Source: Escherichia phage TM1. Taken from it: a stretch of DNA of 39,948 bases. Shown here in pieces: positions 6,396 to 32,008 of this stretch. Made by a program: the position numbers and the translations under genes. Each line of letters begins with the position of its first letter. Within the stretch, counting starts at the first letter, position 1. The stretch lies in sequence record OM908436.1; one strand, given 5' to 3'. The notes below the pieces were generated by a model that saw nothing but the letters and a program-made list of their open reading frames with translations, was not told the origin of the DNA and made no database searches.

Positions 6396-8159
6396 TTAGT
6401 GGAACGTAACGTATGACCCTAGTCCTAGCTCGTCGTCCGTATCGTGAGTTACCCTGACCCCATTGTCCCAGAACTCGGTGTGGATGGACTCGAAGCCTTT
6501 CCGTGGGTTCTCCATCTGTTCCTCCAGCCACTCCTCAGTGACTTCACGTTCGCCTTTGTTGGCATCCTTAGCCATCGACTCAACGAAGAACTGTACACCG
6601 ATAGCCAGCGCATCAAGTCGGTCATCGTGTGCCAATGCTCCACGTTCACGAGAGATACGGGTCATCTGGTAGAAGAGAGAGTAGATAGGGTTACGAACAC
6701 CATCCTTATCAGAGGCTGACTGGTAGTCTTGGACGATAGCAGAAGCGTTAACGATAAGTCGGTGAGACCCCATGATAGGCTCCAGAACGTCACAGATGCG
6801 GAGTTCTTTCTGACCCTTACTCTTCACTTCAGTTACAGCAGCAGGATGGATACGGGCAGCTACAGGCTTGAATAGCTCAAGGTACATACCATCGCCGAAG
6901 TTACCCTCAATGACGTATTCGTTGACCTTCCACTTACGACCAATCTTAGCCAAGGCTTCCAGCGTAGAGTCTTCATAGCCACCGCGCATACCACCAACTT
7001 CCATAGCGAAGATGTAGCCGTTGAGCTGGTACAGTACCGCATAACCAGTTTCATCCTTACCACGACCACTAGGGTCAATGACCAGAATCTTCTGGGTGTA
7101 CGAACTGAAGGCAGAACCTACAGTCTGATACGTGTGGTACGAGTCACCCATGAGTCCAACGTTAGGAACGTCCTCACGCTTGTTCTTAGGGTTCGGCAAC
7201 CATTGGTAGACCATTGGGCTAGACTCTGGGTCCAAGTCTGCTACGATAAGGTCACGGAGCTTCAGAGGGTACTTCTCTGCATCACTCAGGTTCGGGTTAA
7301 GCATGAACTGTAGAGCGAAGCCAGCTTTACCATAGGACAGTTCACGTTCCTTCAGGTCCGTATCATCGAATCGTACTTCATCGGTAGGACGCCAGTAGAA
7401 GGACTCAGGGTCCTCTTCCAGCTCTGCCTGAAGCATAGGAGCCAGACGGTCGCCGTAAGACTGCCAGTCCTTCTTATCACGTGGATAACGAGCAGGCCAG
7501 ATAGTAGTGGTGTATCCACGGCCTTCAAGCTCACGATACAAGGTCATCTCGTTCTGAGGAGTACCCAGATAGATGATTGTACCTCCCGGCTTCAGGATAG
7601 CGTCGAACTCTTTCACAAGCTCTGACAGACGGTCTCGTGCAGCTTGAGTCGCTGAGTTGTTCGGAACCTCCACGTCATCTGCAATCAGGATGTCAGCACG
7701 ACTACCAGTCAACTGACCAGTGATACCAACGGACTTAACCGAAGGTGAGTGGTCTGGCTTGGCTGGTCCAACGTCGAAGCTGATAACCGCATCTCGCTGC
7801 CCCTGCTTAGGTTTGAGTTCCTGAAGCTGAGGCATGAGGTCGATGATTCTCTTGATGAATATGGAGTTAGCATCGGCTCGTTCCTTTGAGGCCGACACAA
7901 TCATGAACTTCAAGTCTGGGTTGTTCCATAGTTTCCAGACCACGAATGCACACGTAATGAAGGACTTCCCGATACCACGGAACGCCTGTAGGATGAAACG
8001 CCTGTTGTCCCCAGCCGATAGTTTCTTCGCCATGTCAATCTGACAGCGAGTCGGGACCGGGAGTGATAGAGCTTTCCACAGGACGAACAGGAAGAACACG
8101 AAGTCTGCCTTCATACGGGCAGTCATTAGCGCCTGACGCGCCACTAAGTCTTTACTCAA
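6396..8159 (-). CDS. gp19: Terminase large subunit (T7 gp19-like)
   Basis: 587 aa, same size and position as T7 gp19; last structural-module gene before the terminal region; start overlaps the spanin stop. Confidence 0.9.
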
Positions 8160-8605
8160 TGCGTCACCTCCTTATCTTGCTGCAAGGCTCTCACGGTGTC
8201 CTGAAGGGCCTTAATCCACTTGTCGCCTTTCACTCCGATGGCGATAAGACGTTTAGCATCTCGTTCGTCAAGTTCGGCGTAACCATCAACGATGCATCGA
8301 CCGTCACTTTGCGTGGCTCCACTCGTAGGTTTGACTCGGATGCGCAGCCGCTTATTGTCAGACTGAAGGTCAGCAATAATCCTATCAGTGCTGCCTTCCA
8401 GCGAGGACATTTCGTCCTGAAACCGTTTGGACACTTTGCTGACTTCAGCTTGGACAGCAAGTCTTTTATCTTCCGATGCCTTAAGATTCGAGGTGTATTC
8501 TGCATTTATCTTAGCCTCCCACTTATTGTTAGCGGTGTGGTAGCCACCAGCAAACATCACTGCTGCAAGTAACCACGGAGCCGCTCTCTTTAAAAATTCG
8601 AGCAT
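8156..8605 (-). CDS. gp18.5: Rz-like inner-membrane spanin (T7 gp18.5-like)
   Basis: 149 aa, N-terminal TM segment [12 protein letters not shown] followed by a coiled-coil-like region; position after small terminase. Confidence 0.8.
8230..8505 (-). CDS. gp18.7: Rz1-like outer-membrane lipoprotein spanin embedded in the +1 frame of gp18.5 (T7 gp18.7-like); true start probably internal
   Basis: Lipobox-like LTISGC followed by a proline-rich segment; fully embedded in the Rz-like gene as in T7 and lambda. Confidence 0.55.
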   Translation of the reverse strand: MQNTPRILRHRKIKDLLSKLKSAKCPNGFRTKCPRWKAALIGLLLTFSLTISGCASESNLRVEPRKVTVDASLMVTPNLTNEMLNVLSPSE

Positions 8606-9203: not shown

Positions 9204-11204
9204 TTACCAGTAGTACCAATCACCTTTCCTACTTCTAATTAGAACAGAGCAATCGGCAACAGGTACTGTAGATACCCCACCAATCCTTATCTCATATAAT
9301 TTACTGGGTAGTCTTTTCTTAGTTAGAGATGCTTTAAAATCTGTACCGGTTACAGTGATATATTCTGTCCCCTCCTCACTAGCTATCTGTAGGTCCAGGC
9401 CACTGGGACTTGCTGGCAACTTAACATAAAGCTGCTGTTCTGCTGTACTACCGGCGAAATGACCAATAACGGTAGTTGTCCACTCACTCAAAGTCAGCCC
9501 TGAACGCACAAAATCTACATTAAGGGGTTCCTTAATAAGTGCAGCAGGTGCGTTGTAATTATGCCCGTTAAGTACATAGTAGTTGCTGCTGCCAACCTCT
9601 ACTGTGTCTGCTGTGCAATATGAGTGGAATGTTCTTGAATTATCAAAACGATAAAGACTTCTGATTAGCACACGCTCTTGATTACTTCTGGTTAAGATGC
9701 CACAACCAGCAGATAGGTGAAGTGTAGAGATGGTAAGTGTATGACTCTCGCTGTTAGCCTTAGACGACAATAATGATACCTTCGGCTCACCCACCTGAGT
9801 GAAGTCTTTACTGTTGCCCTCGCAGTACATAACCCCAATGTCCCACGCAGCAGGGTCCATTGTTACCACACCAGCACCAGATGTATTCTCAGAGCAAATC
9901 ACACCAACACTAGTAGATAAACCACGACCTAAGATAATACCAGCACCTATCGTATATTTACTCGCATCATCTGTGATTGGGTCATAACCTAGTCCAGTAG
10001 ACTTATCTGTACCCCATGCACTAATGTGAGGGAAGTGTGTAGCATTTACATAGGTATCCCCTTGCTCACCTTCCGTTGAATAACCTAATGCCATGCCCCT
10101 TGCACAGTTGTTTGCATGGAGAGTACCCATTTGAAAATACCAGCAAGCAAACATTACAATGCCATATCTATTAGCATTATATGCATAGATACTACCCATC
10201 TCGGATTCTGCACACATTAGTCGTGCGTAAAAACCGTACGATGCAATGTCTGCACAGTCTATGTTAAGACTACCAATCAAACGTAGCCCTCGTACTTGGT
10301 TCTCAGTATTAGCTACATCAACGGTTTTGGTTCCAATAGGAAATTTACTAACACGAACAACAGATTTTAATGCAGGCCATGTTGGACCAATTGCTTTAAT
10401 TGTTGCCCCATTTAGATTCCCACGTAGGTAAGAGGGGATAACAACCTCATCTGTTACGTGGTAGGTAGCCTTGCCATCAAGGTTTAATGTGCCTGTAGCT
10501 ATGGCCAATTTTATAGCAGGTAGACAGTCAAAGCTGGGGTCGTTCGGGATTGCCCCAAAGTTCTCAGGTGAGTGCTCATCAAGCCCATCCAGCTTACCTA
10601 CGTTAGTCCAATTGGAATCAGGGGTTGAACCTGCAGGCACTGTTTTTGGGAGAGCACCATCCCAGCGGTAATAATAACCATCCTCTTCCCTTAGCAGGAC
10701 CTCGTTCCATAGTGTAACGGTGAAGCCTTTCTCGAAGGAGCTACGGGTAATATAGCCAATTAGACCAGCCTCCCTGATACTCGAAACTATTCGTCGTGCT
10801 TCGTCCTCGCTATCCTTAGCGCTGCCAGCAGAGTTACCAGCAGCATCGGCATATTCCTTCGCTAAGTCAACAGTTTGGTCTCGCCCTTCTTCTGCAATAT
10901 GGATAGCCTGAAGCTCCGAATTGGTCAGGTCACTAGCTGTCAACACTGAGCCATTCCTGAAGTCTACCACTAAGTCAGTTCCAGTCTGACGGTGAATACG
11001 CACGACGTCGAAACCTGATTGGTCAGCCAACATCTCAATCATCGTTGGATTAAGGAATCGGTAATCTCGACCAACTTCCAGTACACGGTTCAGGGCAGGG
11101 TTAGAGCTATTCACCAGCGTAACAACAACAAACGTTCTGGCTAGGTAGTCGAACTCAATCCTGTACCGAGTGTTTCCTGAAGGGAATTGTGTAATCGTGG
11201 ACAT
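9204..11204 (-). CDS. gp17: Tail fiber / tailspike: T7 gp17-like N-terminal domain fused to a non-T7 C-terminal receptor-binding domain (probable beta-helix polysaccharide depolymerase)
   Basis: N-terminal [13 protein letters not shown] and [14 protein letters not shown]...[11 protein letters not shown] match T7 gp17 FEYLARKFVVVTL and VDFTDGSILRAYDL...QTMHVAEEARD; residues from about 150 onward have no T7 counterpart and are rich in short G-x-hydrophobic repeats. Confidence 0.85.
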
Positions 11205-11250: not shown

Positions 11251-11273
11251 GTTTCCTATAGTGATAGTTTAGT
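11251..11273 (-). promoter_or_regulatory. Phage-RNAP promoter upstream of the tail fiber gene (phi17-like)
   Basis: ACTAAACTATCACTATA/GGAAAC; overlaps the gp16 stop codon. Confidence 0.7.
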
Positions 11274-14200
11274 CCTTGATGTGGATGCCTTGCTCCTCAA
11301 ACGTTCCAAGCAACAGCTTCTGGGTAATTGGGTCGTTCGGAACCAGTTCACGGAACGTATTATACATCCCGGTCATGTAGTCACGCTCGTTGACGCGAGT
11401 ATCAGCCTTGAGGTAGCCAGCCAAGTTGTAAGCCGAAGCGCCAACGTTAGCAGCATATCCGAAAGCTGGAACCTGCTCCAAGAAGTTACCAACAACATTC
11501 ATAACAGGGTCACTTGTAGACGCACCATACGCGATGGCGCGTTCAGGCTTCTCTGTAGGCGAACGAGGTAGGATAGACGAACGTAGCATCTTAGTGTCCT
11601 CATACCCAGCGATGCCACCCAGAATGTTAGCTACCCCAAGTGGGCCACCCAGATGTGAACTACGGGACAGAGCCGCATAACCAATCATCGTCGGGTCAAG
11701 AGCTTGCTTGAGGTATTCACGGTCTCTGCCATCCTGCATAGCGTAAGCCTTGACGTGAGCCTGAGCCATGTAGTAGATACCAGCCAGACCCATAGACATC
11801 ACAGTGGACAGAGCAGCATCCATCGCTCGGTTGTTCTTCGTGGCGTTATAGAAGGTTCGCATGGTACGTCCATTGATGGACTTGATGACGAAGTTCTTAA
11901 ACTGAAGGACAGTCTTAGCGAGAGGGCCATAAGCCTTGGCGTCCATGTTTGACAGCTTGTGGGGCCGGAGTAACGTTTCGTCAGCGATGGTGTCACCCAT
12001 ACGCCACAGGTCCATAGCCCTTGGGTCCTGACTGAACGCCTTCTTATCCTTGATGGTGTACTTCCCGTCTGGACCACGAGTCACTGACTCACGGATTAAT
12101 GACTTAATGCCCTTCCACTGCTCGTCAGATATACCAGCGGTCTTCAGCCATCTGTCATCGAACTTACGCTTACTGCCAGTCAGACTATGCTCCACGATGT
12201 CAGACAGGAAGCCTTGACGTCCAGCATCTAACAGGTAGTTGGTCGTACCGTTGAGGACTTTAGTGAACGGAGAGCGTACTGCAAGTTCGCCAGTGTAATA
12301 CTTGGCAGAGCCTAAAGCCGTAGCCGCAGGTTTACTCAAGGCGCTGTAAGACCGAAGACGGTCAATGACATCCTGTTTAGACGGACGGATTGAGTCATCA
12401 AGCTCCTTACCGAAGATAACATTGTGCAGGTCCTTAATCTCTGAGGCTCCTACCTTCTTGTTACGGAAGGCTAGGTCACGGAATATCGGGACTCCATGAA
12501 GCATTGCACGAACGTTACCACGAGCCAGCATACCACCAATCTCCGTTAAGTTCTGAACACCCATGTAGGCATTCTTAGCGAAGAACGATAGGTCAGTCAT
12601 TGTTCGCATCACGGTAGCGAAGGCTGCATCGTCAGCACCATCACGTCGAGCACGACCAGTTAGAATCTTCAGGGTGTCACGCAAGGTAGATACTTCACCT
12701 TTCAACTTTCCGTCATCACCAGCCTTGTTCATCATGGTCTCAACCAAGTCCTTCATTTCTTTCGTTGTCTTGCCTGTACCAGCCATAATAGCAATGTCAC
12801 CATTAACTCGACGGTTGTATGCCGGGACAATCTTGTCCATGTCCCACTCACGCAGGTTGTTGACACTGAAGGTTTGACCATTAGGAAGAATTATTGACAT
12901 ATCGCTGTCGAACAGGTTACGAGCCTCAAGGAAGCTGTTGTTCTCCAGACCCACCAGACCGTTGATGTTCTCTTCCATTACGGATGAACGCTCGAACTGC
13001 TCGGTGTGAGAGATACCATAAGCCTTATCGTTGGCGTACTTATCGACCGCAGCCGCAAGTCCTTCTGGAGTCAACGTAGGGTCAGCCTCTAGGAGTGCCT
13101 CGTCCACACGTTTCTTGACCTCAGGTCGAGACGCATAGCTGGTCAACCATGACTTCTTGATGGCCTCCTGTAGTGCCTCTGGACTTCCAAGCTCCTTGAT
13201 GTACAGCTCCTTCATCTGGTTGCTATACACATGTGGGACGTAGGTTCCCTTGAATCGGCTACCCGGAAAGATAGACTGAGCGTCTGGACGACCAAACATC
13301 GCCGGGTTCTCCATCATCTCACGCTTGGCGTCAAACTGGTTCTTCAGCAGGTCATAGACTTTCAGTTCTCCCGGAGTCAGTTCAGCCTTCAGGTTCCCAC
13401 TTCCGTCTTCAATAGCCATAGACACACGCTGGTAGATGTCCTGACGGAATGCGCCAGAGTCTCGCCAGAATGCTGTCTGGAAGTATGGGTCCTTGAGAGC
13501 CTCAGTAACCGCGTCGTCAATGTCGTTGTAGAACCGATGGTCAACAGCACGAAGTCTCTCGAATACGTCTGACGCAGTGGTCCCGATTTTACCTGAGGCC
13601 CCTGACTGCATACCTGTTGGTGAACGCACTAAGTCAGCAGCGACTCCGCGAATCTCAGGGTTCTCAGACCGAAGCAGCTTCAGGCCAATCTCAGTTAGCC
13701 CACCAAGGTTCACACCAGCAGCGGCACGTTCAGGCTCAATCACTTCGTCAAAGACCTTACGTGTCTTAGGGTTCAGAGGGTTTTCACCAATCAGTATTGA
13801 ACCGTCTTCTAATCGTACACTACCCGGCTCATTCGGAACGTCAGCGAACTTAACACCTTGATGACTAAAGGTCTGCTCACCTTCCTGAATAGGGAGACGA
13901 GACAGGTCCTGACCATCAACGTTACGGGCTGTCTCACGAGCTTCCAGACGTGTAGCTGGGCCAGCGAACTCGTTAGTGTTGCGACCTAAGGCTCTGCCTA
14001 GGCCATCAGCGATAGCAGTCATGCCACCACCGAAGAGAGCACCGCCAAGGATAGCTTCAGCCACATGAGCATCACCACCAGCCACTGAGGTACGGGCCAT
14101 CTCGGACACACCAGACAGTGCTCCAGATTGAGCAGCCACGGTGAACATCTTGTTGACCAGCTTACCGCCTTTACCAACCTGTCCAGCTATAGGAACGTAG

Positions 14201-15165
14201 GTCAGCGGGTCTACACCCGAACCAATCACACCAGCAGCTAACTGAGCACCAGTCCCAGCCTTGGCCTTCTCTTGGTCCAACTTCTGGTTCTCAAGAGCCA
14301 AGTTAATAAGCTCGGTCAGGTTCTGAGGGGAGCCACCAGTGATGACCCCGTAATACTGAGGAAGAACTCCAGCGTTACGAATCTGGTCCAGCTCCTCACG
14401 AGACCACTTATGGTTGTTCCAGCGGGTCGGGTTAAACACATCGCCAATGACATCAAGTGAGTCCTCGGTCTGACCAGCGCGGATAGCCACGCCGACCATA
14501 GAGTTCTTCACTTCAGCTTCTGTAGCCTGGCCGAAACCGAACCACGTAGAGCGATCCTCTCGTTCCTGCATGGTCTCGCCAGCAGACTTATAGAACATCT
14601 CACCGAACGATTCGTTGGGAGCTTCAGGTGCTTGACCCTCAATGTTTAGACCAGCAGCGGTCGGAAGGTTCTCGCCCAGAGCTACTTTAGGTTTAGCCTT
14701 GAGTCCTTCCGTGAGTGCGTCAAATACGTTAGCGCTTACTGGTGGAGTCTTTGGGGTGATGCCCCCAGCACCACTTAAGGCGCGAGAGACTCCTAGCTTG
14801 TAGACCTCAGGGTCATACCGGGAACCAGTCTCATGGTAGCCGATAGCCTCAGACAGAGAGGCGAGGACATCAGGGTTCGTCAGGTCGATACTTTGTGTTG
14901 CTGGAATACCAGTCGCAGCCACAACAGAGTTGATGTAGGACTGAGTGTCGTTCTCATTAGGTGGTGCCCAGCGGTTGATAATCTTCTCGATAGAATCATA
15001 GCCCTGTCGACCATATGACATCAGGTTCTTAGCCAGAGCGCGTACACCGGAGTCGGGGGTGTCAAAAGTCACGAACGCCCCGTCATCACCCGTAGCCCCT
15101 TCCCACTGGTCCTTGGACACACGGATGTTCCCGATGTTGTTGTTTCTTATTCCACGTGCTGCCAT
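11269..15165 (-). CDS. gp16: Internal virion protein D with N-terminal lytic transglycosylase-like region (T7 gp16-like)
   Basis: 1298 aa versus 1318 in T7; position between gp15 and the tail fiber. Confidence 0.85.
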   Translation of the reverse strand: MAARGIRNNNIGNIRVSKDQWEGATGDDGAFVTFDTPDSGVRALAKNLMSYGRQGYDSIEKIINRWAPPNENDTQSYINSVVAATGIPATQSIDLTNPDVLASLSEAIGYHETGSRYDPEVYKLGVSRALSGAGGITPKTPPVSANVFDALTEGLKAKPKVALGENLPTAAGLNIEGQAPEAPNESFGEMFYKSAGETMQEREDRSTWFGFGQATEAEVKNSMVGVAIRAGQTEDSLDVIGDVFNPTRWNNHKWSREELDQIRNAGVLPQYYGVITGGSPQNLTELINLALENQKLDQEKAKAGTGAQLAAGVIGSGVDPLTYVPIAGQVGKGGKLVNKMFTVAAQSGALSGVSEMARTSVAGGDAHVAEAILGGALFGGGMTAIADGLGRALGRNTNEFAGPATRLEARETARNVDGQDLSRLPIQEGEQTFSHQGVKFADVPNEPGSVRLEDGSILIGENPLNPKTRKVFDEVIEPERAAAGVNLGGLTEIGLKLLRSENPEIRGVAADLVRSPTGMQSGASGKIGTTASDVFERLRAVDHRFYNDIDDAVTEALKDPYFQTAFWRDSGAFRQDIYQRVSMAIEDGSGNLKAELTPGELKVYDLLKNQFDAKREMMENPAMFGRPDAQSIFPGSRFKGTYVPHVYSNQMKELYIKELGSPEALQEAIKKSWLTSYASRPEVKKRVDEALLEADPTLTPEGLAAAVDKYANDKAYGISHTEQFERSSVMEENINGLVGLENNSFLEARNLFDSDMSIILPNGQTFSVNNLREWDMDKIVPAYNRRVNGDIAIMAGTGKTTKEMKDLVETMMNKAGDDGKLKGEVSTLRDTLKILTGRARRDGADDAAFATVMRTMTDLSFFAKNAYMGVQNLTEIGGMLARGNVRAMLHGVPIFRDLAFRNKKVGASEIKDLHNVIFGKELDDSIRPSKQDVIDRLRSYSALSKPAATALGSAKYYTGELAVRSPFTKVLNGTTNYLLDAGRQGFLSDIVEHSLTGSKRKFDDRWLKTAGISDEQWKGIKSLIRESVTRGPDGKYTIKDKKAFSQDPRAMDLWRMGDTIADETLLRPHKLSNMDAKAYGPLAKTVLQFKNFVIKSINGRTMRTFYNATKNNRAMDAALSTVMSMGLAGIYYMAQAHVKAYAMQDGRDREYLKQALDPTMIGYAALSRSSHLGGPLGVANILGGIAGYEDTKMLRSSILPRSPTEKPERAIAYGASTSDPVMNVVGNFLEQVPAFGYAANVGASAYNLAGYLKADTRVNERDYMTGMYNTFRELVPNDPITQKLLLGTFEEQGIHIKD

Positions 15166-15596
15166 GTTAATCTCCTCTTGATTCGACTAATAGTTACTGG
15201 TGAGATTCCTAAAATCCGTGCCAGTTCCACACCACTCTTCTCACTTGAACGGATAAACCTGACGTCATCTTCAGTAAGTACGCAGGTACTAATCTGAGAG
15301 CCTTTAGCTTGACGACCTCTCTTGGTCATATCCTCCATGTTGTCACGATGTGTCCCTAATACTAAATGTTTAGGGTTCACGCAATACCTGTTGTCGCATG
15401 TGTGACGAAGTACACTACCTTTCGGTATTGGACCATTCGCTAACTCATAGGCAACACGATGCGCTCCTACGGTCTTTCCGTCGACCCATATGTTTCCATA
15501 CCCACTGCTGTTCAATCCTCCAGTGAAGCGGATACAGCCAGTTTCTTCCGAAATAGAAAGACGTGCCAGTCTCTCACTGGCTGTCCCGTTCTTCAT
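15147..15596 (-). CDS. HNH homing endonuclease inserted between gp15 and gp16
   Basis: 149 aa; GYGNIWVDGKTVGAHRVAYELANGPIPKGSVLRHTCDNRYCVNPKHLVLGTHRDN is a typical HNH motif with conserved H/C/N positions; T7 has no gene here. Confidence 0.75.
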   Translation of the reverse strand: MKNGTASERLARLSISEETGCIRFTGGLNSSGYGNIWVDGKTVGAHRVAYELANGPIPKGSVLRHTCDNRYCVNPKHLVLGTHRDNMEDMTKRGRQAKGSQISTCVLTEDDVRFIRSSEKSGVELARILGISPVTISRIKRRLTWQHVE

Positions 15597-15598
15597 GT

Positions 15599-17881
15599 TT
15601 ACTCCTTACCAATTAGTACGTTTGCGATACCCTCCAGTGAGACGTCATTATACATCCCACCGCGCTTCTCGATGTTGGCCTCTCGGTCAGCTCGACGTTT
15701 GTCACCAGCAGCTTTAGTCCCGACGATACGCGCTCGCTTGTTAGCGTCACGTTCTGCCTGAGCGTATGCGGCATCTTGTGCCTTCTGCTGTTGTTCGCGG
15801 TAGAGTTTACCTACAAGTTCTTTATCGTAGCGAATACGAATAGTCCCTGTAGCGTCTTGGAGGAAGATAGAGCCGTTCTGTTCAACAACGGACAACTGAG
15901 AGTTAACTACCCAAGGGTTGGCCTTAATGAGCTGCTTACGAGCGGTGTCGATAATGTCTCGACCTACCTGCCATGACTCTGGGTTATCCCCAACCATAAG
16001 TTGGTGCTTGGACACCATGCCGATGGACTTACCGTCAGAACCTTCAGACTGGAACGTTACGGTGTTCTCATTAAGCCAGCGTTGAGTCTGCTGAGTTGCA
16101 GCATCAGCGTTACCTGTACGATAGTACCATGAGTCCCAGACCTTACGAGCACTTGAGTCCAGAGACGTAGGAAGACGCGAAAGGTCCTTATTCCGAGAGT
16201 CGTTCTTCAACTCCTGCCACGCCTTGTCTGACTCCATGCGCATCTCACGGCTTTGACTTGCAGCTTGCTTATCAGCTTCAATCATCGTCTGAGGGTCCAG
16301 ACCCATCTTGTCCATCTGGTCGAACGTAGAGAACAACTGAGCTTGGTCAGGATACAGAGCAGCGAAACTTGAAGGGTCCTGAGTGTAGGCACGACGAAGA
16401 TACTCGAAGCGTTTCATCTTGTCTGGGTCGTACTGTCCACGGATGACCGCAGCTTGCCACTCACCAGCAGCGTCCTGAGTAAGCGTCTGGAAGGCATTAC
16501 GGAATGGACCGTTGTTAGTGTCAGCCCTTAACAATGCCACCTTCTGGGCGTCCTTAGCAGCCTCAGGGATGTCCATCTGGTCAATCTGCTGTAGCTTGGC
16601 AGCCGCATAGTTGTTCATGTCCGAACGCTTGAACTCGCCTGTTGCTTCAGAGACCGGAAGGTCCTCATAGTTGGTGGACACGTTGTCCCCAGCCAGACGC
16701 CGCTGATACACTTGGTCTATGACCAGTTGCTTGTTCTGGGTCTGGATTAACTTAGTGTTCTCCTTAGCCTGTTCAGCGGACTTACGCTTGACCGCTTCCA
16801 GTAAGCTGGCTTCGGCATTAATAAGCATCTGACGCTGAGGCGTTAGTTCTTCACCGGGTTGAAGCAGGTTGTTCTGCTCCTTGAGTTTCTGAATCTGGGC
16901 AAGACCAATGGTTGGGTCGTCCTGAAGAATCGCAGACTGAACGCCTAACGCCAAGTCTTCCTGATACTTAGCCACCAGTTTATACTCAGTACCTTGGGCC
17001 TCAACAATAGCAGCATTGAAGACGTCAGGTCCTACAATCTCTTCGACGGTAGCGTCAACACCGTTAAGGGTGATACGCTCGCCACGGACTTGCTGTAGGA
17101 AGTTTGATCCTCCTGACTTCTGGATTGCGTCACGGACCGTCTGGGTGATGACCTCTCGTGCTCTCTGGTCCGAAGGTATAGCAGCAGTCGTCAGTCCATC
17201 CCGAAGGTAGGCCATGAAGGTCTTTCCAGACTCAGGCGAACGCATCAGGTCCCCATCGTTAAGGAACGAGTTCAACTCAATACGAGTGTTCAACATTGCT
17301 GTCTCTTCAGACTGCTTGCTGAAATACTTATTGAATGACCCGTAGATAGCGATGTTTCGGTCCGTGATGTTATCGTTGAATCCACGCTGGAAGAACTCGT
17401 CTGTAGGGTTAATGCCTGCCTCTTCAGCATAGGACTTAGCAGCATCCTGAAGTCGCTGGTGGCGATATTCTTCCATTTCCTGACGTGTGCGGAACTCACC
17501 GTTCTGAATCTTAACGTTAATCTCGTCGTCTACAGCAAAGGCAGCATTACGACCAGTCTTGACTCGAAGTGCTTCCATAGCGTAAGGGTCGTCCTGATAC
17601 AGCAATGTGCCGTTCTGGATAGCCTCACGTCTTTGCTGAGGTGTCAGCTTACGGATAATCTCGTTAGACCGCTCGTCAGCTCTGGTCTTCTCCTCGTCCT
17701 TGAACTGCTTGTACAATCCTGTCCCAGACTCAACGAAGTTGGTTAACGCACGAGCCAGACCGGAGTCACCAGTCGGAGCCTGAACGCTGGCTGCTTGATA
17801 GTTTACGGCGATAGCTTTACCCGGCGCTCTGCCACGACCCATAGTCCGATTAGCCAGAGCTGATTCAATATTACTAGCCAT
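15599..17881 (-). CDS. gp15: Internal virion protein C (T7 gp15-like)
   Basis: 760 aa versus 747 in T7; position between gp14 and gp16. Confidence 0.8.
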   Translation of the reverse strand: MASNIESALANRTMGRGRAPGKAIAVNYQAASVQAPTGDSGLARALTNFVESGTGLYKQFKDEEKTRADERSNEIIRKLTPQQRREAIQNGTLLYQDDPYAMEALRVKTGRNAAFAVDDEINVKIQNGEFRTRQEMEEYRHQRLQDAAKSYAEEAGINPTDEFFQRGFNDNITDRNIAIYGSFNKYFSKQSEETAMLNTRIELNSFLNDGDLMRSPESGKTFMAYLRDGLTTAAIPSDQRAREVITQTVRDAIQKSGGSNFLQQVRGERITLNGVDATVEEIVGPDVFNAAIVEAQGTEYKLVAKYQEDLALGVQSAILQDDPTIGLAQIQKLKEQNNLLQPGEELTPQRQMLINAEASLLEAVKRKSAEQAKENTKLIQTQNKQLVIDQVYQRRLAGDNVSTNYEDLPVSEATGEFKRSDMNNYAAAKLQQIDQMDIPEAAKDAQKVALLRADTNNGPFRNAFQTLTQDAAGEWQAAVIRGQYDPDKMKRFEYLRRAYTQDPSSFAALYPDQAQLFSTFDQMDKMGLDPQTMIEADKQAASQSREMRMESDKAWQELKNDSRNKDLSRLPTSLDSSARKVWDSWYYRTGNADAATQQTQRWLNENTVTFQSEGSDGKSIGMVSKHQLMVGDNPESWQVGRDIIDTARKQLIKANPWVVNSQLSVVEQNGSIFLQDATGTIRIRYDKELVGKLYREQQQKAQDAAYAQAERDANKRARIVGTKAAGDKRRADREANIEKRGGMYNDVSLEGIANVLIGKE

Positions 17882-19011: not shown

Positions 19012-21369
19012 TTAGACGGAACGAGCTTTCTTAGCGTATGACGCCTCCCATCCACACCCAACGATTGACACTGGGGTAGGATAGTCGGACTCTAAGGTTA
19101 GACTCGTGGTCAATGCGTTACCATTCATAGCGAAGCGATACTGCCCGTCACCAATGTTTGTAGTCCCGATGGTTTGCTGCCCAAGGGTGTACCCGTTGAA
19201 TGTATTCACGAACTCCCTCGCACCATTTCTGACAATGAGTCTCAGAGCGCCAGTGTCCTTGTAGTTTACCCAAGCACGACGAAGCTGTAGACGGCCAGTG
19301 TCTTCAGACTGAGTGCCACTATCATCTTCAATCTTAATCAGGAACCGTGAGAACTTGTAGGACATCAGATAGGACCGTCCGATGAACACTGTGTGTCCTG
19401 ACCAATCTCCGTTGAGGTTAACCACAGTTGAGATTTCGGTCAATTCACCAAGGTCCACATAAGCACCCTGACTGTCAATCAGATAGTACCGACCGGGAGA
19501 CGGAGCGTTGCCGCCATAAGCAGCACCAATGTCAACCGTAGTCTTATATGTGTCAACATTATATGAGCCAATTGGAATTACCATAGACACCTTGGAGTCA
19601 ATGTGGAGTCTATATGGCTCTAACGGAAAGTCAGTTGCCTCCTTGATGAACTTAAGATGCTCAAGGTCCACGCCGCCTTGGTGCTGACGAACAATGAACA
19701 TGGTAGAGCCAATCGACGCAGACGCCAGAATCTTATCAGCTTTAGGGAACTCCCAGTGCGACCAAGAGGCTTGAAGCTGTACGCCGTCCTTAAACAAGAA
19801 CTTGTAGATGTAGATATGGTTGTATGCACCTGTAGAGTTGACGCAGATGTAGTTCTCAGTCCCTGTACCTTGAATATCGAACACCCCGTTAGGGATGTAG
19901 GACAATACGTGACCGGTTGTATCATCAGCATCCTTCACATCAGACACATCAGCTACAGCGAAGTATCGCTTAATGCTGGTGAATGACCCACGAGGAGCTG
20001 AGAAGAAGACTGAGCGTCCTACAGCGAACGGTCTGGCATTGTCGCCTAAGGCAAACTCTGAGCCTACATCAAGCTGGATAGACTTCGAGGTAAGGACCCC
20101 AGAGCTTGTCATCACGAACTGAACCTCATCCGACCAAAGTAGTAGCTGCTCGCTAAACGGAACGGCATACTTAAGGATTGAGATTCGAGGGTGACTTACA
20201 GCTACATCAATAGGGTCATCATCACCCAATGTCGCAACACTCTTAGGGAAGAACGAAAAGTAGCTGGCTGAACGGCTCATGATTACGTTCTCTCCTGACA
20301 AGAACCCCAGCCTATTCCTGTAGAAGAACACATCGTTAATCGTAGCATCCACGAAGCTAGGCATAGGGTTTGTGTCATCATTACCAGCACCACGATTAGA
20401 CCAGTCCAGAGTCTTGAACTCAAAGGAGCCGTCAGATTGTCTCACCAGAGCATGGGGCATTGTGGTGTTATCGAACCCAGTGACCACTCCCGGCTCTACT
20501 GTCTCCTTCCACGTCTTAGTGTTGGAGTCATACATCACGTAATATTCATCGGCGCTACTGTTGGTCTCACCTTGAATCTTAATGATGTACCCATTTGGAG
20601 CCGCAAGAGGCAACTTAGAGATTGTTTGCACCGTGTCGAGTACTGGGCTGATTAGTTGGTTAGCGTAGCCATCCTCCGTCTCCACTGAGTTAATGTCAGT
20701 CCCTTCAGGGGCAGTGATTAACAGGAATCCAGACCCAAGGTCGAACGTGAAGGTAGGGTAAGCAGCAACAAGAAGGTCTCTCAGAGCCGCACCGATAGCC
20801 TGAGCATCAACCTTAGGAGGGTCATTCTCTGCATCATTACCTGCTGGCAACTTATGCTCTACCTTAACGCCTCCATTGATTCCTACCTTAAGGGTGCGAC
20901 CGTACTGCCCACCACGCAGGTTAATTAAAGCTCGTGCTTTACGATTATAACCAGAGTGTGCCTTCTCGCTTCCACTTTTAACGACAACCTTACGGTTCAC
21001 GATGAACGTATAGTCTGCAACGGTAACGACACGGATGTCATCTCGCGGGTTGGACGACTTAACGTAGTCTACCGCACCGGACACTGAGTATTGATTACCA
21101 CTCAAGTCAACTACCTGAATGTTGGACCCGTTGAACACTATGTAATACTGCTCCTGCTCGTCACGGTTAATCAGGTGGAACTTAGGGTTACTCCCAACGT
21201 CGATGTTAAGACGTCTCTTGAAGACTGTAGGTGGTCGCTTCTGGAGGCCATCACTCTCTGATGACCAGCAGTTAATTTGCTCCTCGCCTTGGTCTGAGAA
21301 CCTCAGTATGTCTGGCTGCTGGCTAATGCCACCTTTAAGGTTCTTGATTGATTGAGTAATTAGTGGCAT
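19012..21369 (-). CDS. gp12: Tail tubular protein B (T7 gp12-like)
   Basis: 785 aa versus 794 in T7; position after gp11. Confidence 0.85.
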   Translation of the reverse strand: MPLITQSIKNLKGGISQQPDILRFSDQGEEQINCWSSESDGLQKRPPTVFKRRLNIDVGSNPKFHLINRDEQEQYYIVFNGSNIQVVDLSGNQYSVSGAVDYVKSSNPRDDIRVVTVADYTFIVNRKVVVKSGSEKAHSGYNRKARALINLRGGQYGRTLKVGINGGVKVEHKLPAGNDAENDPPKVDAQAIGAALRDLLVAAYPTFTFDLGSGFLLITAPEGTDINSVETEDGYANQLISPVLDTVQTISKLPLAAPNGYIIKIQGETNSSADEYYVMYDSNTKTWKETVEPGVVTGFDNTTMPHALVRQSDGSFEFKTLDWSNRGAGNDDTNPMPSFVDATINDVFFYRNRLGFLSGENVIMSRSASYFSFFPKSVATLGDDDPIDVAVSHPRISILKYAVPFSEQLLLWSDEVQFVMTSSGVLTSKSIQLDVGSEFALGDNARPFAVGRSVFFSAPRGSFTSIKRYFAVADVSDVKDADDTTGHVLSYIPNGVFDIQGTGTENYICVNSTGAYNHIYIYKFLFKDGVQLQASWSHWEFPKADKILASASIGSTMFIVRQHQGGVDLEHLKFIKEATDFPLEPYRLHIDSKVSMVIPIGSYNVDTYKTTVDIGAAYGGNAPSPGRYYLIDSQGAYVDLGELTEISTVVNLNGDWSGHTVFIGRSYLMSYKFSRFLIKIEDDSGTQSEDTGRLQLRRAWVNYKDTGALRLIVRNGAREFVNTFNGYTLGQQTIGTTNIGDGQYRFAMNGNALTTSLTLESDYPTPVSIVGCGWEASYAKKARSV

Positions 21370-29302: not shown

Positions 29303-29463
29303 TAGCCTTCTCCTTCTTCTTCGTTATGCTCTTTCAGAATTTCATGAATGTCTCGACTGCATGAACCACTGAGGTTTGGATTATAACCAGACTCCTCGTG
29401 TCCACACCACCAAGCTGACCGCATCAGGTCTTTGACCTCCTGCTCGCTATAAGTTTTAGCCAT
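29302..29463 (-). CDS. Small acidic protein (53 aa) between the HNH gene and gp5.5
   Basis: MAKTYSEQEVKDLMRSAWWCGHEESGYNPNLSGSCSRDIHEILKEHNEEEGEG; start overlaps the HNH stop and stop overlaps the gp5.5 start; hand-translated. Confidence 0.4.
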   Translation of the reverse strand: MAKTYSEQEVKDLMRSAWWCGHEESGYNPNLSGSCSRDIHEILKEHNEEEGEG

Positions 29464-29744
29464 TAGTGACACTCCTTCTTAACAAGTTTGCGCTCACGGT
29501 TCGTCTTAATGACGTGTTCGCGCTTTGGAATACACTGTAGGTGCTCTATGTTGCAGCACCCACGGTTCAAGCACAAATGGTCTATCTCGTAGCCATCTGG
29601 TATAGGTCCGCGCTTCTGCTCCCACACCCATCGGTGGAACATGAAGGCGAACTTGTTGCCCTTCCTGTAGCTTCCCATGGGGTACCTGAAGTACCCATCT
29701 TGGTTCCTCTTGTGGGACACGCAGACGATACATCCGGTAGGCAT
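29463..29744 (-). CDS. HNH endonuclease downstream of DNA polymerase (start uncertain; the longer ORF-track version would overlap the gp5 end)
   Basis: FHRWVWEQKRGPIPDGYEIDHLCLNRGCCNIEHLQCIPKREH is a typical HNH motif; Cys pair near the N-terminus. Confidence 0.65.
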   Translation of the reverse strand: MPTGCIVCVSHKRNQDGYFRYPMGSYRKGNKFAFMFHRWVWEQKRGPIPDGYEIDHLCLNRGCCNIEHLQCIPKREHVIKTNRERKLVKKECH

Positions 29745-29775
29745 GGTGTGGAAGCGTAGGGTCTTGGTTCGAGGG

Positions 29776-31947
29776 TCAGTGACACTCTTTCCACGTTGGC
29801 CCAATCTTACCCTCTGTATCAAGCTCACACTTGAAGTTATAAAAACGTCCGACCTCACGCATTGCTTCTTGTGCAATACGGACGACTTCTTCGGCAATCT
29901 CCTGAGTACGACACGCAATCTGCAATTCATCGTGAATCCAAGCCATTAGAGCAAAGTCACCATCCCAGCCATTACCGTAGCCAGCTTCCTCAAGTTTCTT
30001 CTCCGTCAGCACCATCCAGTGCTTACAGACAACCGCACCATCTCCTTGAAGTAGAGCGTTAAGTGCTGAGTGTGGCGACCGGATGTGAATGCGGCGACCA
30101 TCAAGTCCACGCAGCCAACGGCGTTTCCACTTAACGATGTTCTCTCCGTCCACCCACTTAGAGTCTGAGATTAACGTATTACTCACAGCTTCCCTGAGGT
30201 CCTTGATGGCTGGTGTACCCTCAATGAATTTCTTCATGAGAGCCGAACCTTCCTTCTTACCACCGCCGACTATCAGTCCAATCTTAGCGGCCCCTGCACC
30301 ATACAGGAACGCATAGATGAACGTCTTAGCGTTGTTACGGAAAGCCTCATGATCGTGGTTCGACTTATCGCGTGGGACGTTAGGTGCTAACCCAGCGTTG
30401 ACTGCGTTGGCCCAGTGGATGTCACCTTCGACCACAGTCTTCGCATAATCTCCACCATCAAACGGAGCTGCTCGGTTCCCCAGACAACGAAGCTCAAGAC
30501 CTGAAGCATCCACACCAACTTGAATCCAAGGGTCTGGCTTACCATCAGTCTTGTTCCAAGCTGCACCGAAAGCACCACGGCAAGTCTCACCATACGGAGC
30601 ACCGTTAGCAGGGACCTGAGCCATGTTTGGTGAACTATGAGTCGCACGTCCGGTTACTGCCCCGCATGGGTTGATTGAACCGTGCATACGTCCGTCTGGA
30701 CCTACAAGTTTCAACCATGCGTTCTTACCTTCAGCCGCCTGACCGATGCGCTTCTGGACTACCAGATACTCACGAACTAGCTCTACGCAAGCCTGAGCCT
30801 CTGCGTCTGGTAACTTAACGTGTTCTAACGTCTCGTCATCGACTACAGGTTTCCCGGTGTCAGTGAAGTCTACAGGCTCCCATCCACGCTCCATCAAGAC
30901 TTTCGCTAAGTGGTCTCCGCTTCCCGGATTAAACTCAACGTAAGTGATAGGTGTGAAAGGTGCTCCCTCCATCGTGTCTCGCGTATCGCGCTCACAAGGT
31001 TCAAGACCTAAGCGTTGAGCTTTGTTCTTCGGCTTCTTAAAGATGCCACCTATTTTAGGATACACGACTCGCGGATACTTCGGAAGGTCCTTGCCTGTCC
31101 GGGGGTGCTTGAAGAACTCCTTGCCTCCCTTTGGTGCGTACCAGCTACCGAAAGTCGAACGCAGCTTGTCCAGCAGCTCTGCACGTTTGACGGTGAGTTC
31201 ACGATATAAGCCTTCGACCATCTCTGTGTTCATCGGATAGCCGTTACGTTCCATCTTCGCACAGGTCCACGCAGCATCATGTTCCAGACGCAACGCATAA
31301 ATCTGGTCGAAAGCGAACTGTTCAGACTGGAAGTAATACTTGTCAGTCAGGAACTTCTTGAACAATGCCAGTGTGACCACAACGTCTTGAACGTTATAGT
31401 CCAGCATCTCCTGAGACGGGAACAACCATTCGTCCCCAGCCTTATATTCGATACCTTCAGCCTTGCACTTGGCAACGTAATCGTGTTTGTATTCACCTTT
31501 CATCTCACCAAGACGATAGCCCCAAGCCTCAAGAGACTGACGTCCCATCATCTTAGGTGGCAGACGGCCAGATTTCACCGCTCCCATGTCTGAGAACTTA
31601 ATGTTTGGATACATCAAGCGACCCAGCACCAAGGTATCAATCATCTTGTGTTTCGGGAAGTTAAAGCGCTTCCCAAAGTACAGACGTTTCAGCTTGTCAA
31701 TAGCCGGGACGTCGTAGTTGATACCGTTGTGGAATACCAGCATACCATAAGGTGATGCGGCAATCTCTTCCACTTTATGAACATACTCTTTGAAGCCACC
31801 GACGATACCGACCATCGGAGCTACCCCATACTTAAGGGTCTCATTCGACTCGGCGTTAATCAGGACCCCACAGTGAAACTGGGAGACTGTATCAAGGAGA
31901 CCGTTGGTCTCGATGTCAGAACCCCAGATACTCTTAAGGTCAAACAT
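29776..31947 (-). CDS. gp5: DNA polymerase (T7 gp5-like, family A, with 3-prime to 5-prime exonuclease domain); start at MFDLKSIW with SD GGAGGA
   Basis: DIETNGLL (exo motif), EAWGYRLGEMKGEYK, DYNVQDVVVT, GVDASGLELRCL, NAKTFIYAFLYGAG, WIHDELQ and the C-terminal H all align with T7 gp5; the ORF-track start at 31983 has no RBS. Confidence 0.92.
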   Translation of the reverse strand: MFDLKSIWGSDIETNGLLDTVSQFHCGVLINAESNETLKYGVAPMVGIVGGFKEYVHKVEEIAASPYGMLVFHNGINYDVPAIDKLKRLYFGKRFNFPKHKMIDTLVLGRLMYPNIKFSDMGAVKSGRLPPKMMGRQSLEAWGYRLGEMKGEYKHDYVAKCKAEGIEYKAGDEWLFPSQEMLDYNVQDVVVTLALFKKFLTDKYYFQSEQFAFDQIYALRLEHDAAWTCAKMERNGYPMNTEMVEGLYRELTVKRAELLDKLRSTFGSWYAPKGGKEFFKHPRTGKDLPKYPRVVYPKIGGIFKKPKNKAQRLGLEPCERDTRDTMEGAPFTPITYVEFNPGSGDHLAKVLMERGWEPVDFTDTGKPVVDDETLEHVKLPDAEAQACVELVREYLVVQKRIGQAAEGKNAWLKLVGPDGRMHGSINPCGAVTGRATHSSPNMAQVPANGAPYGETCRGAFGAAWNKTDGKPDPWIQVGVDASGLELRCLGNRAAPFDGGDYAKTVVEGDIHWANAVNAGLAPNVPRDKSNHDHEAFRNNAKTFIYAFLYGAGAAKIGLIVGGGKKEGSALMKKFIEGTPAIKDLREAVSNTLISDSKWVDGENIVKWKRRWLRGLDGRRIHIRSPHSALNALLQGDGAVVCKHWMVLTEKKLEEAGYGNGWDGDFALMAWIHDELQIACRTQEIAEEVVRIAQEAMREVGRFYNFKCELDTEGKIGPTWKECH

Positions 31948-31971
31948 GGTTAATCCTCCGTTTAGTCTAAT

Positions 31972-32008
31972 CATAAAGGCCACTCGCTGTGAATGACCTT
32001 GAGTCTAG
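31972..32008 (-). promoter_or_regulatory. Conserved RNA hairpin upstream of the DNA polymerase gene (candidate RNase III site, R4.7-like)
   Basis: CATAAAGGCCACT-N8-ATGACCTTGAGTCTA; compensatory changes relative to the copies at 8668 and 38797 preserve the stem. Confidence 0.55.

Follow-up and report, generated by a model that had tools for sequence, protein, structure and literature searches.

T7-like phages, which are mosaic in general, commonly carry free-standing HNH homing genes. In phage T4, the homing endonuclease genes (HEGs) of the Seg and Mob families are intergenic, lying between conserved essential genes; their products cleave at a distance in the neighboring gene, and flanking markers are co-converted. 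I-HmuI of phage SPO1, which is intron-encoded, nicks one strand. In phage ICP1, HEGs are reported to sit at recombination boundaries (Barth et al. 2023, PMC10448857). The closest relatives of the gene described in this report are same-site orthologs in GenBank: CPT_Pipis043 of phage Pipis ("HNH nuclease", 97% amino acid identity), the "endonuclease" of GA2A (93%), and gp42 of Ro45lw (90%). They share with our gene the insertion site, the length of 149 amino acids, the 19-nt overlap with gp16, and the arrangement of ribosome-binding sites (RBSs), but differ in the backbone and in the length of the co-converted flank. A second allele (type B) is represented by gene 7.7C of Citrobacter phage CR44b, a "predicted homing endonuclease", and also occurs in EFA-1, HC12, EPr2, ZH4, and SD6. 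The CR44b allele agrees with our gene (type A) in site, length, and domain order, and the two are identical over their first 33 nt and in the N-terminal MKNGTASERLA, whereas the overall identity is only 58% at the amino acid level and ~61% at the nucleotide level. Outside Kayfunavirus, the best homolog is the uncharacterized HNH protein gp7.7 of phage T7, with 54% identity over residues 21–148. The T7 homolog is located at 19858–20238 of a 39938-bp record, nearly the whole length of T7, and is presumably gene 7.7 given the T7 map and the CR44b gene name. Its position is different, between T7 genes 7.3 and 8. The literature searched yielded no report on the mobility or target of T7 gp7.7, and no study of the present element or of Kayfunavirus HEGs.

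The DNA analyzed here (the window) is a stretch of 39,948 nucleotides from Escherichia phage TM1 (OM908436.1), a Kayfunavirus (K1F-like Autographiviridae, T7 family). From comparison with its relatives, we consider it probable that the window carries an HNH_3 / I-HmuI-like free-standing HEG placed precisely between gp15 and gp16, which would home in mixed infection by repair. The 3-kb region around the HNH ORF matches 221 phage records in GenBank at 84–94% identity, nearly all of them Kayfunavirus, from Escherichia, Salmonella, Citrobacter, and Enterobacter. The gene order of the window is that of the T7 late region reversed: gp12, 13, 14, 15, HNH, 16, tail fiber, lysis gene, and terminase. 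The free-standing HNH endonuclease gene (HNH_3) occupies 15147–15596 on the minus strand and encodes 149 amino acids from an ATG start, as defined by its ORF and by Pfam and PHROG matches. Its upstream neighbor, also on the minus strand at 15599–17881, encodes a gp15-like internal virion protein of 760 amino acids (phrog_1339, described as "internal virion protein" and T7 gp15-like, E = 0), and PF26212 (Phage_T7_Gp15) was found on the upstream gene at homologous loci. The downstream neighbor (11269–15165, minus strand) matches phrog_342 ("internal virion protein with endolysin domain", E = 0) and encodes a gp16-like internal virion protein of 1298 amino acids whose N-terminus carries a lytic domain. 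The HNH ORF begins 2 nt past the gp15 stop codon, and its TAA (15149–15147) lies beyond the gp16 ATG (15165–15163), giving a 19-nt overlap. A preliminary description of this DNA had placed a 149-amino-acid ORF with an HNH motif between two T7-like structural genes, its 3′ end overlapping the gp16 start by 19 nt; all of this was confirmed. A paralog search of the window gave a single match, a distant HNH_3 paralog at 29463–29930.

Comparison with relatives that do not carry the insert, which the preliminary description had proposed, defines the insertion site. In these genomes, only 4–5 nt separate the gp15 stop from the gp16 ATG, and the junction alignment reads GGTAAGGAG-TAA-(A)CATA-ATGGCGACTCGTGGTATTCGC. 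In carriers, the junction reads GGTAAGGAG-TAA-AC-ATGAAG...(HNH)...AAGAGGAGATTAAC-ATGGCAGCACGTGGAATAAGA, a net insertion of ~429 bp. Sequence and junction alignment place an AAGGAG RBS inside the last gp15 codons (15602–15607, minus strand), and its predicted role is to serve gp16 in insert-free genomes and the HNH gene in the window. A putative RBS for gp16, AAGAGGAG, is located within the 3′ end of the HNH gene (15172–15179, minus strand; sequence and alignment). The Pipis record annotates a ribosome_binding_site at the equivalents of both positions. As read from the sequence, the element takes over the resident RBS and brings a replacement for gp16, so that expression of the virion gene is preserved. 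A promoter and terminator scan of 14900–15900 found nothing above the shuffle expectation except a hairpin inside the ORF, and the RNA fold around the HNH start (z-score −0.69) gave no support for a regulatory structure.

The same junction bears on the origin of the ORF. K1F-type phages have been reported to harbor a HEG-containing intron in their DNA polymerase gene (PMC4925675), and the HNH ORF might likewise belong to a group I intron that divides a single gene. We regard this as extremely unlikely: insert-free relatives have gp15 and gp16 as two complete, separate genes (stop, 4–5 nt, start), and in an Rfam scan of the whole window, group I introns included, no family reached its gathering score. 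The absence of an Rfam match and the separate flanking genes effectively refute a group I intron-encoded HEG at this locus.

The HNH protein belongs to a well-defined family. The HMM search suggested in the preliminary description returned Pfam HNH_3 (PF13392) with 55.7 bits against a gathering cut-off of 24.8 (E = 3.8e-15; residues 44–87, profile positions 2–45 of 46). The ORF also matches phrog_59 and phrog_1872 (HNH endonuclease/endonuclease) at E ~1e-35 and, more weakly, phrog_517 (HTH) on residues 106–142. The protein comprises an N-terminal beta region, an HNH core at ~44–90, and a C-terminal helix-turn-helix at ~106–140. A confident AlphaFold2 model of the 149-residue protein (pLDDT 91.8) has N-terminal strands, a beta-beta-alpha unit at 62–92, and three C-terminal helices. 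The beta-beta-alpha-metal fold is present in this model as strands 62–65 and 78–81 followed by helix 83–92. The PDB yielded nothing meaningful by sequence search, whereas fold comparison with Foldseek placed I-HmuI (1U3E) first (141 columns, E = 5e-4, probability 1.0), followed by I-PpoI.

In an alignment of 69 homologs, C21, Y33, H46, R47, H65, C67, C72, H77, and N86 are invariant, and D68 and N69 (both at least 90%), P75, L78, G81, D89, and R95 are nearly so. The residues of the HNH motif, catalytic and structural (C21, H46, R47, H65, C67, C72, H77, and N86), are all conserved. The invariant residues include those expected for catalysis and for metal or zinc binding, namely a putative general-base His, metal-ligand Asn/His, and a Cys/His structural site, their individual roles being assigned by analogy. 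All 13 type A copies (at least 80% amino acid identity to the window copy) are intact 450-nt ORFs with no frameshift. Comparison of the HNH gene with eight other type A copies gave dN/dS values of 0.08–0.23 (about 0.1), with dS up to 0.55, and hence selection maintains the protein. A decaying relic was rejected on the dN/dS of ~0.1 and the invariant catalytic residues.

The gene is sporadic among close relatives. In IMG/VR, the ORF is missing from 21 of 24 related genomes and present in the other 3; it is not, therefore, a fixed feature of this site. In GenBank, ~22 of the 221 related records have an HNH gene at the gp15/gp16 site. Five of these, representing three phages, are type A, and the other 17 carry the divergent type B allele (58% amino acid identity) and its variants. 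In all, ~10% of close relatives carry an HNH gene between gp15 and gp16, and ~90% do not. The GenBank relatives fall into three classes. The first, with full-length 3-kb matches, consists of Pipis, GA2A, and Ro45lw. In the second (CR44b, EFA-1, PH1061, and others), the match is broken over the ORF and an "HNH endonuclease" is annotated there. In the third (LM33_P1, YZ1, and many more), the match is ~430 bp shorter, and gp15 and gp16 adjoin. Ten further type A carrier contigs came from ENA and Logan assemblies, and nine of these were used as loci L029–L037. Every HNH copy found in IMG/VR, GenBank, and the ENA/Logan loci sits between gp15 and gp16.

This distribution bears on a possible non-homing role. 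Packaging cofactors are known among HNH proteins encoded beside terminase genes (PMC8861465), and the C-terminal HTH could suit a regulator. Thus, the ORF might encode a domesticated accessory protein: a packaging HNH protein like HK97 gp74, an HTH regulator, or a nuclease directed against host or competitor DNA. We judge such a role very unlikely, because ~90% of very close relatives do without the gene, and because two divergent alleles alternate at one intergenic site, a pattern that fits selfish elements better than a core function. The gene is also away from the terminase; terminase L is encoded at 6396–8159, ~7 kb from the HNH gene. With this distance and the absence from ~90% of relatives, assignment to the terminase-associated HNH proteins (HK97 gp74-like) was rejected.

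The flanking DNA carries a recombination footprint. An alignment of all loci over the 4.4 kb surrounding the junction contains 372 informative sites that separate two insert-free lineages: lineage 1 (L003, L005–L008, L010–L012, L026, and L028) and lineage 2 (L016, L018, and L020–L024). The gp15 gene of the window is of the lineage 1 type up to the insert, with 97–100% nucleotide identity to the HNH-less L005, L028, and L003 until 15600. Downstream of the insert, sliding identity to lineage 1 is 68–85% from 15165 to ~14780 and then 96–98%. The informative sites in the window accordingly run from lineage 1 to lineage 2 and back to lineage 1, the return occurring between 14756 and 14725. Sliding identity and informative sites together mark a putative co-converted flank of ~410–440 bp at 14740–15165 (minus strand), where the 5′ end of gp16 is lineage 2/Pipis-like. 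Other lineage 1 carriers also have one-sided patches, with right ends at 14837/14827 in GA2A, 14841/14837 in L032, and 14774/14756 in both L029 and L036. The Pipis patch is two-sided, and L034 and Ro45lw are lineage 2 throughout. In each lineage 1 carrier, the patch starts exactly at the HNH gene and runs downstream, and overall there are at least four different right ends. This footprint shows an apparent movement of the gene between phage lineages with about 160–440 bp of gp16 attached. Because the right patch ends differ among carriers, several separate transfers of the gene and its downstream flank into new backbones are suggested.

Patches of this kind might also be ordinary mosaicism, with an HNH ORF that has ceased to act on phage DNA, or never acted on it, being carried as a passenger by ordinary homologous recombination. 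Segments mosaic between lineages 1 and 2 do occur far from the gene, for example at 14100–13180 in GA2A, and also in Pipis. Nevertheless, we consider a passenger unlikely. The strong purifying selection and invariant catalytic residues described above argue against it, as does the start of all lineage 1 carrier patches exactly at the gene with extension downstream.

A further argument comes from the distribution of substitutions linked to the HNH gene. Of the differences that set L034 apart from every lineage 2 insert-free genome, 23 fall in gp16 nt 1–162, whereas the 1100 bp upstream contain 4 and the 1400 bp downstream contain 8. HNH-linked substitutions are thus ~30 times denser in gp16 nt 1–162 than in the flanks, and the diverged block ends in a purely synonymous cluster, which ordinary passenger recombination does not readily explain. 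We screened the 4.4 kb for columns conserved in at least 95% of 20 insert-free genomes and differing in at least three of four type A carriers. Fifteen columns passed, all within 15004–15160, and they are clustered at 15145–15160 and 15004–15016.

The first cluster defines candidate site 1 (15145–15160, minus strand; gp16 nt 6–21; column screen and alignments). It reads ATGGCGACTCGTGGTATTCGC in 20 of 20 HNH-less genomes and is changed at 5–7 positions in every carrier. Some of these changes are imposed by the HNH C-terminus and stop codon, which overlap the site: the final six HNH codons (TWQHVE*) overlap the first gp16 codons, and several changes in gp16 nt 6–18 follow from this overlap. The second cluster corresponds to gp16 codons 50–54 (SYGRQ) and lies in candidate site 2 (15002–15022, minus strand; gp16 codons ~48–55), which the column screen and alignments mark as a predicted recognition and cleavage region together with its putative immunity variant. 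Site 2 reads TCATATGGTCGACAGGG in the window and TCCTACGGTCGCCAAGG in all HNH-less genomes of both lineages, and only synonymous changes separate the two. All 13 type A copies read TC(A/T)TATGGT(CGA/AGG)CAGGG here, using two different Arg codons, CGA and AGG.

The HNH-linked diverged block stops at site 2. We predict cleavage at this site, in sequence that is invariant among HNH-less genomes; the end of the block fits a cut there because the DNA between the cut and the HEG would travel at every event. From these boundaries, we infer a mobile unit of ~15004–15598. Both clusters fit a conserved target altered in carriers, although linkage and the overlapping frame could explain part of the pattern. 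Since the 13 type A copies share ancestry, the fixed differences near the gene may in part be due to linkage and not to selection for immunity. A search of IMG/VR with an exact 26-nt pattern found no insert-free genome with the "immune" site 2 variant; only the two known carriers matched, which makes immunity inseparable from the presence of the HEG in these data.

Type B carriers differ at site 2. They keep TACGGTCGCCAAGG and alter the codons directly 5′ of it (15017–15022; Ser TCC to AGC or AGT). PhiNW-B1 is type B yet has the type A-like CGA CAG. A tentative reading, which we hold to be possible rather than likely, is that the gp15/gp16 junction is contested. Within one ~20-bp stretch of gp16 (codons ~46–55), types A and B may recognize overlapping segments, each being protected by its own silent changes. 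If so, some genomes, such as PhiNW-B1, would carry both sets of silent changes, and the junction would be the scene of an arms race between competing HEGs, in which the lytic domain at the N-terminus of gp16 is reshuffled time after time.

We propose a homing pathway for this element. A carrier and an insert-free relative would infect the same cell, and the enzyme would nick or cut the DNA of the insert-free phage within the 5′ end of its gp16 gene. We predict a cut around CTGTCCTACGGTCGCCAAGG, at a distance of ~150 bp from the insertion point in the downstream direction. Since I-HmuI, the closest solved relative, is a nickase, homing may start from a nick and not from a double-strand break. 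Recombinational repair from the carrier would then copy the HEG, the obligatory gp16 nt 1–162, and a further stretch of variable length, while the carrier would be protected by the synonymous changes at the site. The window itself would be the product of such an event, combining a lineage 1 backbone, the HEG, and ~410–440 bp of lineage 2-like gp16. The reading of the ORF as a mobile homing endonuclease, first put forward in the preliminary description, is supported by comparative evidence: the one-sided patches, the purifying selection, and target-like sequences that appear to be altered only in carriers. The best explanation of these features is a HEG that is active or was recently active.

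Nothing in this pathway is mechanistically new, and same-site orthologs are already annotated in GenBank. The present analysis adds a putative bounded mobile unit, a natural series of apparent recombinants and breakpoints, and a prediction of a 20-bp target. Kayfunaviruses are in use for phage therapy and phage engineering. For studies of homing and co-conversion in this genus, the element would be a convenient model, and it would also be a candidate marker-drive tool. I-HmuI resembles the HNH protein over nearly its whole length, with a DNA-binding N-terminal region, an HNH core, and a C-terminal HTH, but the two proteins share 16% identity, and I-HmuI is intron-encoded whereas the window gene is free-standing. 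Like the HEGs reported for ICP1 (PMC10448857), which differ in protein subfamily and phage lineage, the window element lies at a boundary of genetic exchange, as judged at our locus from comparative evidence. The free-standing Seg and Mob HEGs of T4 have the lifestyle proposed for the window element, while their protein subfamilies and phage lineage are different.

The two alleles of the HNH gene between the gp15-like and gp16-like virion genes, type A (carried by TM1) and type B (58% identical in amino acid sequence, at the same site), are identical over the initial 33 nt of the gene (ATGAAGAACGGGACAGCCAGTGAGAGACTGGCA; 15564-15596, minus strand); beyond this stretch, they are approximately 60% identical. 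The shared stretch contains a 6-bp hairpin at 15581-15565, and approximately 9-10 nt of it are complementary to the invariant 3' end of gp15 at about 15630-15642 (TCTCACTGG). The RNA fold at the start of the HNH gene was not significant (z-score -0.69). The 33-nt identity could have arisen from recombination between the alleles, or it could represent a translational control element.

PhiNW-B1 (PQ476010.1), a type-B carrier, has both the AGC serine codon of the type-B change and a type-A-like CGA CAG at the equivalent of site 2, the predicted target in gp16. This combination of both sets of changes may confer resistance to both the type-A and type-B alleles at the predicted target. "Enterococcus phage EFA-1" (MT350292.1) is also a Kayfunavirus and is approximately 92% identical to the window across 14000-17000. 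Its record bears the flag UNVERIFIED_ORG, and the Gram-positive host given there looks like a mis-assignment.

A second HNH_3 gene (29463-29930, minus strand; Pfam E=2.4e-19) occupies the "gene 5.3" position, directly 3' of the gene for DNA polymerase (29776-31983). The polymerase 3' end shares approximately 155 nt with the longest ORF of this gene, and the polymerase profile match extends as far as the polymerase end. An Rfam scan of the window detected no intron at this location. With 40% identity over 42 aa, the second gene is only a distant relative of the gp15/gp16 HNH gene.

The tail fibre/spike gene (9204-11204, minus strand) encodes Pfam T7 tail-fibre and TSP1/Gp66-type tailspike N-terminal domains, and is an exchangeable host-range module of the typical kind. 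The terminase large subunit gene (6396-8159, minus strand) directly adjoins the Rz-like lysis gene (8156-8605, minus strand). Hafnia phage Ca and CR44b have a homing endonuclease gene at this junction (PMC8861465), which is absent from the junction in the window; the junction is therefore a second polymorphic site for homing endonuclease genes in the genus.
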